Source: Patellaria atrata CBS 101060
Lineage: Eukaryota
NCBI GenBank assembly: GCA_010093705.1
Contig: MU006100.1
Location: 470,745 to 534,744 of the forward strand
Length of the DNA: 64,000 bases
Direction of reading: 5' to 3'
A program made the position numbers and the translations under genes. Below, piece after piece: positions 11,442 to 38,626 of the stretch (the stretch's first letter is position 1; each line of letters starts with the position of its first letter). The notes under the pieces were generated by a model that saw only the letters and a program-made list of their open reading frames with translations, did no database searches and was not told the DNA's origin.

Positions 11442-12426
11442 GTTAGATGGGTTGAATCTGGATGTGTAGATGTTGAGGTTTTGAGATATATTAGCTACAT
11501 GCGCGGGTTTGATATAGACTTTTCGTTCAACTTAAATTGCTTTTTACGTGTTATGTCATCATGGTGATCGTAATTGGCGCTCATTTGTGCGCATGTCGAA
11601 GAATCCACTCTCTTCCCAGCGCTAAAAACTATGACCGCGATGTTCTCCGATTTTTCTTTCTCTTCATTTGATGTTTCATGAGAGGTACGAGATTCGCTGT
11701 TGCTGTTCTTTGGTTTATGCTGCTTTATTCCATTCCTTTCGCAGTCCCTTCGCGTTTATACACTCTGAGCGATTCGTAACCGTCCATTCATAGAGCTCTG
11801 TGTAAATGATCCACATCGGATTCCCTAGGAAGGGAAGAACAGCTATGCAGCCAAGTTTTATGAAAGCATTTCGTAGCGCGTACGGGGTTATGTAGAGTGT
11901 TCTCTCTGCGGGTTTACAGGATGGTTTATTGCGGAGTTGATATAGGAGTGTTCGTAAGCTATTTGGCTTAGATGAAGTTAAATCGCGACTCGCAGGGCCT
12001 AGGAAGTGGAATGTGATCTAGGTGACTGTGAGGTTTAAAGGTCAGATTTTCAACTGTTTTTGGTTGTAAGATGCGGAAGAATCATGGTTGTCTCAAACAG
12101 TTCGTCACTGGTGTTTTCTGCGAGAGGGTTGTAAACTGGATGGAATCTCAGTGGAATGAGAGCAGGATAGGTATGACGTAGAACCAGCGATTGTCTGGTA
12201 AAAGAGGATTCCCTTAGAGATATATAGATTGCATGGAAACCGCTTAATAAAAACCAACGTTATTTTTGAATGTAGACTTGAAGATTTGCACCCAAGCACT
12301 CAAGAGACACCAACGGTCTTCACGACCTCCCGCAACGTATCCATTCACCCAGATCCCATGACCAAATTCACCAAACACTCTTGCACCTTAAAAACGACTC
12401 CTGCGCAGAATTTTTATAATAACCCA

Positions 12427-12596
12427 GGGCCTGTGGCGTAGTGGTGGGCAACTCACCCACCACACCGATCGGCCGTATACAGCACGTCCTGGGTTCGATC
12501 CTGCGAGGGGGCGAAAAGCCCCCATATCCCCTTCGGGCCCGAAGTTTGAGGGCAGCAGATGTACCACGCTCTCTCGGGGGCGTGGGAACTGTTTTT
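12427..12596 (+). ncRNA. Putative structured Pol III-type ncRNA or tRNA-headed SINE, copy 1
   Basis: A box TGGCGTAGTGG, B box GGTTCGATCC (12492-12501), four hairpins, T-run terminator from 12592; no tRNA acceptor stem found. Confidence 0.6.
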
Positions 12597-13311
12597 AACT
12601 TTTTAATTTTTTTTAATTTTTTTTTCCCGGTCGTAGATTTAAAAGTGCTTTTGTATAGTATCTGTTCTTTTACGAAATTTCTTATGATAGCAGCAGGTTA
12701 GCTTGGTGATTTCCTTTTTTTTTTTGTAAATTAGACGTAAAATAAGAGAAATATCACTCACAAATAGTGTTACGGTTTTTTTCTGTTTGTTTTTTTTTTT
12801 TTTGACTGGGGTAAAAGTCCGGTCATACTAGGGCAGGGAATAGAATTGAGTAATATGATATTATTACCATAGTATGGTGGGCATATATCTCTTCGTTGTA
12901 GTTGCCATAGTTCTAAAAGTAAGAAGATTCAAACAAACTGGAATGATTGGAGTTTGACCCCTCTTTTCTCGAGTGCCGCTGGCAAAAGACTTGGATCCGT
13001 GTTAAACAATCGTACAATGGCCGTAAAATGTCTATTGCAACGGGGGGAATCATAGGGCGAAAGGTTCGTATGAAGAAACAAAGCTGGACAGCATTTCATG
13101 GTTTCGGAAAGAGTATAATAGACGCGAAAAGAGATGTTACCGCGAGAGCAAATTAGAATTTTGACGGACTCATAGGCAAATGTATCGAATAACAGAGCTA
13201 GCAAACGTAACGCGCGAAGACACAGCCAGAGACCCATGATGTCATGCAATGCACATACCCCGGCCTACCCCTTTCCAAAGTCATCTCAAATCATTAACCG
13301 TAAACCTACAA

Positions 13312-33999: not shown

Positions 34000-35121
34000 T
34001 ACCTGTGGACAAAGTTCATCTCTAGTGTCCATTCCTCCCTGGTGATGGGTTCCGTCCCGAGAGTCCTATGGGTCCAAATGCATATGAGAAAGTGTCTAAC
34101 AAGGAGTAATCCTCCTGTAAGTCCTGTCCCAAAGTCTTCCTCTCTGGAGACAACAGAGTCGAACTAGAATAATCAAGTATGAGTGTGAGAGTTCGAGCAC
34201 TGACGGATAAGGCCCCTCACGATCGCATCCCATATATAACGATATTCCTCCGTATCTAGATCATTGTTACAGTCCACCGCAAACTCCTTTGAATGATTAA
34301 GTGCTTGATGCGAAGCTGATGACCACATTACATCTACGCAGCTATTGTATAGCTCTTGCTTCTCTGATAATTCAAAGACTTGTTCGCATTTATGAAGTCT
34401 ACTCTCATACTCGCTAGTCCCTTGAACATTAGCATGATGATACTAATTCTTAGGGTAATGTTTGTCTCTGCTGATAATTACCATGCTGGGAATTAGTATT
34501 TTGGATACTTTAAGATCGCCGTCCTTTTGTTTTCCCAAAAGGCTGTATGTACCTCGAATCATCTGCGGATATTTTCCCGTATACAGAAAGCTGTCCGCTC
34601 TCAATCAGCAAAACACAAAGATACTGAATAGGCACGTAGTTTGCGGGACTCACCAGCCATGCAATGATCTGAGGAGCGTGTCCAAAGGGAATCATATGAT
34701 TTTCTCCCACCTCCTCCTCAGAAACCATTTTCAGTTCGAGTGCCTTGAGTGAAAGCATTCCCCAAACGCGCAATAGCCATTCATTCCAGCTTATATCCTT
34801 GAAGGTTTCTCCATGAAAGTGTTAGTGCAATCATTGAAACCCTCTGTAAATTTAGGACCTGACAACACAATTCCGGTGGGGTCCTTCCCCATGAGCGAAT
34901 CTCTGAATTTGTTGTGGGTCATAGAGCTAGATTTGAGAGAGATGAGGTTGTGCGTGCCCTTTCTTTATCGTTTCAGTGAGAGCCAGTTCTCACGTTGGTT
35001 CATTATCATCACCTGAACCATCTTCCGAGCGAAGTAAAGTCTTTGACCGCTGTGTCCTCGACTGCTTTGTCTTCAACTGCTGTGTCTTTGCTCCTTTTGA
35101 AGGTGGTTCTTTCACACCCAT
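34000..35121 (-). pseudogene. Decayed paralog B of the same family
   Basis: FTEGFNDCTNTFME / TFKDISWNEWLLRVWGMLSLKALELKMVSEEEVGENHMIPFGHAPQIIAWLVSP; frameshift near 34810 and upstream stops; boundaries approximate. Confidence 0.6.
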
Positions 35122-35625
35122 CGTGAACGCAATGTAGCGAGCGAGATAAGGGTCAATCCAGGGAAAAGGAACGGATGGGTGAAGAGAAGATGAAAGAGGT
35201 AAAAACCCGAGTGTCCAAAGAGAAGATATGCCACAAAACACTCTAGTAGTGGTCAAACGGAACGCTAGCAGAGATAGACAACTCCACAATTACCGGATGT
35301 TTGAACAACACTGATGATACGCAAACGAAGAAAGATGGTAAAAGTTGAGAGAAGAATCCATATAAAAACATGACCGAATAAGGTGCGTTCGTCAGCAAAC
35401 CCTATGACGTTCGGCTATCAAAGAACGTCTTAAATCTTCTGCTTTTGCATGAAATTTGAGTAGCAAGTCCCGCAGGAGAAACTTTTACGACAACGCGTTT
35501 GTAAAAGTGGGCTCTCGGACTGTCCCAGCAGCCTTTGAAGTATGTTTAACACTGCTTTGACAGATAAAATAATTATTTACTAAGAGAAGCGAATTACAAA
35601 GCCAAAAAAAAAAAAAGGAAAAAGG

Positions 35626-35792
35626 AAAAACAGTTCCCACCCGCTCCCCACACCCCACAGATCGAGATCCATGGAGCGATGAGGTACTTCTTCTTGAGGG
35701 CATTAACCCCCCTCTCATGTTCGACCTCTGGAACGGTTGGTTTTGACCTGACCAGTGTGGTGGGGGGTTTTCTACCATTAGGCCATGGGTCT
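35626..35792 (-). ncRNA. Putative Pol III-type element, copy 2 (homologous to 12427-12596)
   Basis: Minus strand TGGCCTAATGG (A box), CCCACCACAC, GGTCGAAC (degenerate B box), GAGGG..CCCTC hairpin, GTACC..GTGGGAACTGTTTTT end identical to copy 1. Confidence 0.6.
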
Positions 35793-36939
35793 CTGGGATC
35801 TGGAAAGAATTCACGGTTCGTTTGTTGATAAGCTGCAAATAAGTTAGAAGGAATGTATTTGGGGCTGACTAAGCATGGATGAAGAAAAAAAATTATAAGA
35901 ATTCATCCAGGGCATCCGTGTGGCGCCATTACGCTACTATAGACAGAGATACTTTCTATCAGCCTAGAAAATAAAAACCCCAAGTGAATTCTGTTTTTTT
36001 TTTTTTAAAAAAAACTCTGTCAAACTATGCTTTGCGAGCGTGACTTGTCTCTTCCCTCATCGTCGCATCCCCAATACACCATACACTCTATACACAAGAT
36101 GTCTCCGCCCATACTATACGAGAAGTAGGGAAAGTAAGGAAATTCGTACTTTCACAGACCAATAGCCCATGTAAAGTGCGGAAAGTACATCAGCATCTCC
36201 TCCGGTTGTGGTTGAAGAAAGATGTACATAAGCGAGAGTAGGTATGGGTTTTATCAAGGCATATAACAATCGAACAAGACATTCGGAGGTTCATGAGAAA
36301 AAATTTAGTTTGGGAAAAATTTGTTTTAGGAGCGAGAACTGTGATAAAATTGAATGTGGGAGAGAAAGTCCAGTTTCTACATAATTACAGGATTGAAACA
36401 GCGCTAAAGAACGTCTAAAAAGATATCCTAAAATGCGGTAGGTCTCATTATACTATACGCATGGATTCTAGTGAATTCATGCATTATTCCCAAGAACTAG
36501 CTTTAGACGACGGAAGAGGATAACAGCTCATGATTCCAACTCCATAAATGTGGTGAAAGAGGGGTGGATCCTGGAGAATCGATAGAGGGCCTATAAAATA
36601 TATCTCGTGTCGGGGTCATGGGGCTCGCGGGCGGACGGTACGTGCCCCCGGATATGTTATGATGTCGGTGTATATTTCCAAAGTGTCGCCACTATGTTTA
36701 GCAATTTGTGTCAGTAAATGAGTATGAGAGATAAAGAGAGCAGAATGCATACTTTAAGCCAAGACACCGTGCTATCTCAGTGGGAAAGCGTAGCTTCAGA
36801 TGCCATGTCGTCTGCTCGTCCATGTGGACTTGATCCCAAACTATTCCCACAGCGTTGTAGGGTATCAATTCTGCGCGTGCTTGTTCGGAGCACTCATAAC
36901 AAATGAGATCGTAGACGCGGGACTAGAGAACCATAAGCT

Positions 36940-37702
36940 TTAGAAGATAGGATGTGCGATCGACAGACCCACAACTCTACTCCACAGATTGTGGTATTCA
37001 CGAGTAGAGAGATTCCCATAGGAATCGAGAATAAACTCATGACCTTCTGCCGGTGCCAGCTTTGAAATCCTCATCCAAGCTTCCATAAGAAAGCGGTTCC
37101 GCAGTATTTGTTTGTTTGTCACCTCAAAAGTGTGCTCACACTGATATTGTTTTTCTCTAGAAAGATATCAGCATGGTGACATTACACGGAGTAAATACAT
37201 CTGTAGGGGCTTACCCTTTGGGAGTATAATACGATGGAAACCCCAAGACGAGCCTCTTCCTCTCGTGCCATGAACCTTCAATGAACCTTGTATCCCGAGC
37301 ATCCATTTTGTCATATTTGCAGAGCTTTAATACCCATTAGCTACATCAGATCACATCTATTCAGCGTAGAGGGTCACTTACAAGCCAGTCGATAATTTGG
37401 GGGCAACGTTTGCAAGGAATCATGCCATCCGTGGCAAACTCTGTCTCGTGTACCATTTGTGATTCGAGGGCCTTCAGACTAAGGGTTTCCCAGATCCGCA
37501 ATAACCACTCGCTTCGCTTGGTCTCTTGCACGATCCCTTCCATCAATATACTCGAGCAGTTCTTGAAATGATCTGTGATACCAGAGTCCTTAGACTCGAA
37601 ATCGAATAATCTACTCTGTGCTCGAAAAGGTTTATGTAGAGTGAGAACTCCGTCTTTGTTTGAAAGGACATTGCGAATAAAAGGTTCGCTATCTTGTTCC
37701 AT
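36940..37702 (-). pseudogene. Paralog C of the same family (truncated or decayed)
   Basis: ITDHFKNCSSILMEGIVQETKRSEWLLRIWETLSLKALESQMVHETEFATDGMIPCKRCPQIIDWLVSDP; 3' extent uncertain. Confidence 0.6.
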
Positions 37703-38626
37703 TGGTTGGTTAGGTAGAATCTCGGCTTTGGTTTTTCATCCTCATCATTCTCGATAGGAATTTACAATGGTGTGCATTGTCTATTTGTTTTCACAAGCTT
37801 CCGGAGTGGGTGTAATCTGTCTGGAGCAGGTTTAGAGCTCATAGTAATTACAGCGTTCGGTAGGAAGGAACTGGTCTAAGAACGCGTGAGTGTGTAAGGC
37901 AGTGTCGTTGTTAAACGTTGGAATATGAGGAAGCAGGGACACAAGTCAAAGGGAAATACTAATTTCACGGTACCTGCCGAGATTACAAACAGATTAGATC
38001 TCCCGGGACTCTCTGATTATAGAATATTGATAAGCAAAAGAAATCATGACTATAGAAAACGTAGTGAGCTGTTATAAGAAATAATTTGCGCGAGCATCCT
38101 ACGGTAGAAGTGTCAGCAATCCCTTATCTTCTATACGATTGAGCTCTTGGTACACTTCGGATCCACCTTACACAACAGACCTTCTTGTACAGTAACGTGG
38201 GAAGCCCCTTTGAGAGTGAAAGTACAGGAGGTGAGGATTGTTATGATAGGAGACGTGACATACTTAACGAAGCTGGGACCAGGGACATCTGAACATGAAA
38301 GAATCGAGATTCATCGGGATACTCTTTGACTGAACTCCCTAAGTTGATAATCAAATTGTTCGACGATAGAAGACAACCATTGGAGAGATTTGATGAACTG
38401 GAAAGAATACCTCAAAGCAATTACAAAAAGTGACCTAAACTTCATTCTCCGCGGGTAATATAAGTGTCCCGTCCGTAGACTAGTCTTTTGAACAACGCCC
38501 AAGAAAACTGGACGAACACGAAAAGCTGCCCGTTCTAGAAAGCAGCCACCTATCTACATCAACTCCCAAAGTTTACACATAACACATTAATCAAACAAAA
38601 CTACACGAACATGTTGAAAAGCACTT

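Follow-up and report, generated by a model that had tools for sequence, protein, structure and literature searches.

Two related units lie 23 kb apart in the 64,000-nucleotide stretch of the Patellaria atrata CBS 101060 genome analyzed here (the window), and the one on the minus strand (copy 2) raises the question of whether it is a structured RNA gene held by selection or the remains of something else. A preliminary description had proposed that it is collinear with the plus-strand unit (copy 1), and this holds: with T tails removed, the two align with a local score of 89.4, which none of 2000 dinucleotide shuffles reached (mean 31.0, maximum 56.9), and the pair is the best non-self match in the window. 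The motifs cited there, both terminal hairpins, GTACC, GGGAAC, and GTGGGAACTGTTTTT were all located in the sequence. Both copies are outside the long reading frames of the window. Copy 1 has a cytochrome b5/flavoprotein gene on one side and MCM3 on the other (the MCM3 exon is identical to a database protein labeled Patellaria atrata, and other Dothideomycetes match it at about 80%, so the window is fungal), and copy 2 lies approximately 2.8 kb from a sulfate permease gene. Short minus-strand reading frames with similar peptide stretches lie on either side of copy 2 (34459 to 34821 and 37361 to 37735), which suggests a local gene duplication around it. Elsewhere in the window, two diverged copies (1931 to 2191 and 2280 to 2536; 77% to 78% identical) repeat a unit approximately 345 nt apart. 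Two sequencing runs that contain the stretch cover the intergenic DNA evenly and without joints, and behave as DNA.

Both units belong to a family whose loci, of intergenic type, are dispersed over 20 contigs of the 28.7-Mb genome and number at least 55. This census, a lower bound, comprises 50 distinct copies from similarity and motif searches of the genome and five more read later; the loci outnumber the tRNA (at least 39) and 5S rRNA (at least 13) matches from a genome similarity search. The flanks of the 50 loci have a GC content of 0.43 to 0.55 and negative RIP indices, that is, no RIP signature. Grouping by eye distinguished at least five head types. Subfamily A has 18 copies (L001 to L017 and L019) plus L069 and L128, subfamily B has 10 plus L125 to L127, subfamily C has 12, and D/E has four plus L129. 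One copy (L064) has no A/B head, and three (L045, L049, and L081) are headless fragments; L076 has its own head, yet is counted with A in the motif, inverted-repeat, tree/module, and loop counts.

All copies end in a common 3′ module. It opens with CAG and a short loop strand whose last bases are GUA; a hairpin 17 to 48 nt long comes next, and GAA, CUG, and a T run complete it. The preliminary description had proposed collecting further copies, and in these GUA/GAA is largely kept: it is present in 41 of 50 copies, CUA in four, and UA in 49, counts that are not independent, given relationship by descent, and that favor intact motifs, given that copies were partly found through the motif or with motif-containing queries. 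A query made from the head only returned 15 matches, 12 of them outside subfamily A, and the module is intact in 10 of these 12 (one with a compensated pair), the exceptions being L036, which is mispaired, and L127, which has lost the module. A head-only query from subfamily C was of low sensitivity and found just two loci. Intact modules are present in 7 of 20 A-group copies versus 25 of 30 other copies (p = 8e-4).

Several loci illustrate how copies have been rearranged. L064 (G000:C5:44549-44578, minus strand) has the 3′ module, the T run, and a TATA-like word approximately 70 nt upstream, without an A/B-box head, and is possibly a short TATA-driven member. In the headless L045 (G000:C1:2553682-2553759), the T tail passes directly into a word resembling the TATA region that precedes other copies, which would fit the remnant of a broken tandem pair. 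The pairs L012/L032 and L028/L031 have flanking DNA in common for 130 to 180 nt past the unit. Both flanks are common to L012, which is of type A and has no inverted repeat, and L032, which is of type B, and this suggests a segment duplication followed by conversion of the unit.

The sequence elements of the family correspond to the layout of type 2 (tRNA-derived) Pol III genes, with putative A and B boxes at a workable spacing and a T-run terminator. An A box is present in 41 full-length copies, with a B-box word 43 to 63 nt downstream in most; the latter is canonical in B, D, and one E copy, whereas A and C have G where T is usual. In 48 of 50 copies, a T5 run lies no more than 24 nt downstream. 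TATA-like words are located 36 to 56 nt upstream of the A box in 11 of 16 A copies and 13 of 25 others (background 5% to 6%), and CACGT/CGTGAC-type words farther upstream in 8 of 16 and 14 of 25 (background 8% to 9%); because the words were picked once the sequences had been inspected, and because the copies share ancestry, the p values err on the optimistic side. Among eight tRNA and eleven 5S genes of the host, TATA-like words are frequent, and the CACGT-type word occurs only once. A profile of the head weakly matches the host tRNA-Ala and tRNA-Val genes (2 of 8 tested; E = 0.009 and 0.014), in agreement with a tRNA ancestry of the A and B boxes, and a tRNA-derived promoter is supported.

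Copy 1, a subfamily B unit (12420 to 12597, plus strand) with T runs after it, contains an intact 5′ helix (12423-12431 with 12486-12493), an A box (12434-12445), a canonical B box (12493-12501), two middle hairpins, and an intact 3′ module (12553-12596). Upstream of it, a CATGAC word (within 12355-12363) and an A/T-rich word at the TATA position (12388-12394) are common to related B copies. Copy 2 is a predicted Pol III RNA unit of subfamily A, approximately 175 nt long (35626 to 35800, minus strand, from a predicted start). An upstream flank common to other A copies (35825 to 35857) carries a TATA-like word (35825-35831) approximately 30 nt before that start. Within the unit are an A box of the tRNA D-arm type (35774 to 35785), a hairpin termed P2 that pairs part of the A box and is weakened in this copy (35757 to 35778), a B-box-like word, GGTCGAAC, with G in place of the canonical T (35718 to 35726), and a short G/C hairpin (35696 to 35714) between the B box and the 3′ module. 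The module itself (35629 to 35694) has GUA at 35685-35687, GAA at 35634-35636, and a 48-nt hairpin inside, and it leads into a T-rich run of the Pol III terminator type (35604 to 35630).

The statement that copy 2 keeps the structure was not confirmed. Its terminal hairpin (-22.7 kcal/mol) and GUA/GAA are retained, but the long 5′ helix is largely lost in its subfamily, and in copy 2 itself the CAG strand below the loop is gone and the lower CAG/CUG helix is broken. The whole unit folds no better than shuffles (z = -0.45), whereas copy 1 has a z score of -2.73. Against a family model of the 3′ module, copy 2 scores 20.8 bits and copy 1 scores 62.2, copy 1 having been in the training set and copy 2 not. 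In the tree, copy 2 falls in the A clade, whose upstream flank it has, on a long end branch (0.12), and it is probably a relic.

In the family at large, the head does not form a cloverleaf; its 5′ end pairs with the strand immediately upstream of the B box. In B to E, the arms of this 5′ helix pair better with their own partners than when swapped among copies (-18.4 versus -14.4 kcal/mol; permutation p = 2e-4), and B and C build the same helix from different sequences. Within single subfamilies, its covariation is not significant (p = 0.05 to 0.42). The duplex energies of B and C are -17.7 and -19.2 kcal/mol, that of A is -7.3 versus -5.4 kcal/mol when shuffled, and the helix thus appears to be largely lost from subfamily A. 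Mean folding z scores of the whole unit are -4.8 for C, -2.6 for B, -2.0 for A, and approximately 0 for D/E.

Covariation, which the preliminary description had named as the check on its reading, was recovered in the 3′ module. When 31 of the 50 copies were aligned (29 non-A copies, L069, and L076; 30 distinct rows), with long A hairpins and L036 left out, 92% of cells are paired and the covariation score is 0.239; none of 500 shuffles reached this value and all six slid registers were lower, although relatedness by itself can lift a set of sequences above shuffles, and the structure was derived from the same copies. The covariation terms given by RNAalifold are small (-0.59, +0.45, and -0.38). 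C(UNCG)G is an RNA-specific stable loop, and this word caps the hairpin in 16 of 30 non-A copies and 0 of 20 A-group copies.

The internal loop of the module, with GUA opposite GAA between paired helices, is of the sarcin/ricin (loop E) type as judged from its sequence. Its 5′ strand in 30 non-A copies is AUGUA in 24, ACUA in three, and AGUA in two, and it is AUUA in L126, one of the five copies read later; 24 of the 30 loops are 5x3 (AUGUA/GAA) and five are 4x3. The textbook sarcin/ricin loop is 4x3, one base smaller than the commonest 5x3 form, and for that reason an S-turn fold of the loop is only inferred. The available text of PMC8450098 describes loop E of 5S rRNA as such a motif and natural variants in which the bulged G is replaced by C, U, or A, and that of PMC6633198 describes a U-A handle with a bulged base. 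The ACUA and AUUA strands alter the bulged base and fit these published variants.

Other identities were considered for the family. A tRNA gene was rejected: the head has no cloverleaf, ARAGORN made no tRNA call in the window or in loci L001 to L084, and Rfam returned nothing credible in the window at the gathering score, around copy 2 at E = 10, or on 20 loci at E = 1. A Y RNA found no support either, with no Rfam match and no match to Ro60 (TROVE) in an exon-by-exon search of a genome that may be incomplete. Scans for the exact motif in other collections, which hold few fungal genomes, gave 17 metagenome, four prokaryote-genome, and 70 viral matches, none with a family head. The 17 metagenome matches share little beyond the motif with a profile of the whole element (best E = 0.001), and the head profile had no hit among the 74 prokaryote-genome and viral matches. 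Inner segments fold poorly both in the 17 (0 to -6.8 kcal/mol) and in the 74 (median -3.8 versus -14.2 kcal/mol for the family), and with no family head all of these matches were treated as chance. No homologue was thus found beyond this genome in collections that are mostly prokaryotic or viral and say little about other fungi.

Selection was measured by substitutions private to one copy, with 16 copies representing A (L017, L019, L069, and L076 were left out). In B and C combined, the motif has 5 private substitutions in 506, the boxes have 12 in 462, the remainder of the unit has 118 in 2372, and the upstream DNA has 76 in 1210; the motif thus stands at 1.0% versus 5% to 6% elsewhere (p = 8e-6 against the rest of the unit and 3e-7 against upstream DNA); the groups came from similarity searches only, several C copies were matched by the 3′ half alone, and motif-containing queries may inflate this signal. 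In A, the corresponding counts are 13 of 368, 11 of 335, 71 of 1895, and 34 of 905, a uniform 3.3% to 3.8% (all p = 1). Changes that spare the motif in B and C and are uniform in A suggest that B and C loci are individually constrained and that A is neutral. Private changes, helix covariation, and recurrent C(UNCG)G loops together support RNA-level selection on subfamilies B and C. The preliminary description's inference of selection on the RNA is therefore sustained for the family but not for the subfamily of copy 2, in which the motif (13/368) changes like the rest of the unit (71/1895; p = 1).

The apparent neutrality of A is accompanied by a different genomic setting. At least one inverted-repeat end is present at 15 of 20 A-group copies, and both ends are present at five, spanning 322 to 368 bp; the ends lie 72 to 118 nt before and 36 to 189 nt after the unit, and none were found at B to F copies. 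A 14-mer of the inverted repeat occurs 28 times in the genome (at most one mismatch) versus six times for a control. Subfamily A thus appears, from its ends, to sit in a short noncoding, nonautonomous DNA transposon (MITE) with terminal inverted repeats. The same ends also enclose an element of approximately 450 bp that lacks the RNA unit (L097, G000:C7:243704-244155) and has subterminal inverted similarity of approximately 55 to 90 bp; L098 and L099 are further elements or single ends with the same inverted repeat and no RNA unit. In a midpoint-rooted tree of 47 units (without L017, L076, L019, L064, L127, and the three fragments), A is a clade (100/99) nested in a B+A clade (100/99). The simplest reading of this arrangement would be a single capture of a B-type gene with its promoter, followed by amplification. 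Copy 2 is a decaying passenger of this kind that has since lost both inverted repeats: no recognizable terminal inverted repeat is left at either end.

Target-site duplications at the five two-ended A copies range from a perfect 9-mer, offset by 7 nt, at L010, through matches of 7/9 and 6/9, to none in two copies; none of 94 mismatched control pairs reached 9/9. The perfect offset 9-bp duplication suggests a Mutator identity for the transposon, but a search for MULE domains found none in the genome, and no transposase was linked to the inverted repeats. At L093 (G000:C17, minus strand), an end of the same inverted-repeat element, with the subterminal sequence of L097, lies approximately 40 nt after a 5S gene at 118588-118707. 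The element may favor Pol III genes as targets, and such a preference would account for capture of an RNA gene.

We consider it fairly probable that the family is a set of host-maintained Pol III RNAs that work through a protein handle of the loop E type at their 3′ end, together with a transposon-borne, decaying branch that includes copy 2. The loci would be a dispersed multigene family of small Pol III genes on a tRNA (Ala/Val-type) promoter, from which TFIIIC and TBP would drive an RNA of approximately 115 to 175 nt. This RNA would escape pre-tRNA-like cutting because one long helix has taken the place of its acceptor and T stems. Its 3′ loop may fold as a sarcin/ricin S-turn and present a protein-binding handle beside the oligo(U) end, and the RNAs could act as an abundant decoy or scaffold for a protein that reads loop E. 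Presumably the first candidates for this partner are TFIIIA or an L5-like 5S-binding protein, a guess that we would not expect to prove right. One B-type gene with approximately 65 nt of promoter would have been captured between the terminal inverted repeats of a nonautonomous DNA transposon and multiplied to approximately 20 copies (subfamily A), which would then have decayed without selection. A bolder version, to be taken only tentatively, is that the family represents an unrecognized class of fungal Pol III regulatory RNAs with 30 or more separately selected copies, modular heads, and CACGT-type control, acting as a loop-E decoy for a 5S- or ribosome-loop-binding protein, with one member amplified by a MITE.

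All of the copies could instead be a selfish tRNA-derived SINE, the 3′ hairpin serving as a handle for LINE reverse transcriptase and the conservation reflecting successive master copies, although we regard this as rather unlikely. The tRNA-type head, the unrelated body, the T-rich and often tandemly repeated tail, the subfamily structure, and the three headless copies (L045, L049, and L081) are what such an element would have, and the genome contains 78 reverse-transcriptase matches, the majority of them interrupted by stops. Fungi are known to have tRNA-derived SINEs, as the available part of PMC5063351 describes. However, no target-site duplications were found around 26 non-A copies (2 of 26 against a 4.5% background), and the mean longest repeat is 5.6 versus 5.8. 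Copies also have in common 60 to 120 nt (once 176 nt) of upstream DNA that includes the TATA word and would not pass through an RNA intermediate, and this combination points to duplication at the DNA level rather than a standard SINE. The private changes in B and C avoid the motif, a pattern that a master-copy model would not predict. Scans with the motif for a shared LINE 3′ end, an indirect look at such ends, found family copies only, and none of the matches read (50 loci) has RIP-mutated flanks.

The favored reading, in which the whole RNA is retained, also has to be weighed against one in which the head merely leads the transcript and carries the promoter, and a small RNA is processed from it. 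That product would be either the 45-nt 3′ module, as in RUF70, or Dicer products of the long helices, as in Neurospora milRNAs. The module stays constant across subfamilies whose heads are very different, L064 combines the module with a TATA-like word upstream but has no A/B head, and fungal examples of Pol III leaders and of tRNA-linked hairpins have been documented (in the available portions of PMC2566860 and PMC3547838). Against this, the head cannot fold as a tRNA (the ARAGORN result above), which makes release by RNase Z doubtful, and the hairpin sequence, the would-be guide, is the variable part of the module and the internal loop is the conserved part. We judge a processed product to be unlikely.

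Still less probable is that the loci act as DNA, as TFIIIC-bound boundary or positioning elements whose hairpins arise from palindrome correction. The A and B boxes are conserved in B and C (12/462 private changes), some hairpins are perfect palindromes (L047), and G/C hairpins can also become perfect at the DNA level, through template switching. However, conservation is highest in a loop that is unpaired and asymmetric, and its bulge-type variants and the C(UUCG)G loops make sense in RNA; the T terminators also persist, 48 of 50 copies having T5 no more than 24 nt away.

Host 5S genes are dispersed (at least 13 matches) and of several types (L085 to L096), L085 and L088 having identical flanks. 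One 5S variant, at L089, has a loop E arm of AGUAC/GGAA, unlike the rest. The tRNA/5S rRNA chimera by descent offered in the preliminary description has GUA/GAA in these 5S genes, the AGUAC/GGAA variant, the tRNA-5S fusions of Yarrowia, and the transposon end approximately 40 nt after a 5S gene in its favor, but it is very improbable and, at the sequence level, largely refuted: ten family copies are no more similar to two host 5S types than shuffles are (p = 0.12 to 0.997, 40 comparisons), the 3′ model does not match the 5S genes of eight 5S loci, and there is no Rfam 5S match, even at E = 10 around copy 2 or E = 1 in 20 loci. The words that the family and 5S have in common are those to be expected of any loop of this type. 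The other option of the preliminary description, a 5S mimic, may hold in a functional sense, through the same three-dimensional loop and the same protein.

Only a short list of Pol III RNAs is generally recognized in filamentous fungi. The host-maintained family favored here is apparently a small structured RNA gene family not described before; no published description was found in a search of a literature collection with few subscription journals, and a repeat-library entry is possible. A family that is invisible to Rfam and ARAGORN and whose loci are individually selected for a loop of the ribosomal type would suggest that a class of RNA has been missed, and its transposon-borne branch would provide a built-in neutral comparison. 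Subfamily A would illustrate how a DNA transposon can disperse an entire Pol III gene. There is also a warning here, since loci of this kind would be filed as SINEs or pseudo-tRNAs.

Several known systems resemble parts of this picture, as far as the available portions of the respective reports describe them. RUF70 of Yarrowia lipolytica is likewise a lineage-specific, multicopy, structured Pol III RNA, its role not known, with a tRNA promoter and compensatory changes among paralogues; however, it lies behind an intact tRNA-Trp and is cut off, whereas the present family has heads of at least five types, none of them a tRNA, and conserved words upstream (PMC2566860). The fungal SINEs AfuSINE2 and MgSINE share tRNA-type A and B boxes, an unrelated body, dispersal, and a size of 140 to 500 bp with the family, but they have target-site duplications, which were not found in the family, where the promoter flank was duplicated along with the unit and private changes spare the motif (PMC5063351). 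The hAT element with histone H3 in Pyrenophora tritici-repentis is comparable to subfamily A in that a host gene between terminal inverted repeats was multiplied in a dothideomycete, though in subfamily A a nonautonomous element of 320 to 370 bp is predicted to carry an entire Pol III RNA gene together with its upstream promoter (PMC3538342). Neurospora Pol III milRNA genes are also intergenic hairpin genes of a filamentous ascomycete, with TATA-like words, putative A and B boxes, and poly-T, but they are single loci with a defined small-RNA product, whereas tens of paralogues here conserve a loop and not a guide (PMC3547838). The Class I RNAs of dictyostelids are a dispersed multigene noncoding RNA family with a conserved motif, a stem, and upstream elements; they have no sequence relation to the present family and are expressed and clade-wide, whereas the family is known from the sequence of one genome (PMC7919456). 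Finally, the sarcin/ricin (loop E) motifs of 5S rRNA, large-subunit rRNA, and PSTVd place GUA opposite GAA between helices and include bulge variants with C and U, as this family does, whereas its main form has one additional base in the 5′ strand, a variable stem as its cap, and no flanking rRNA sequence (PMC8450098 and PMC6633198).
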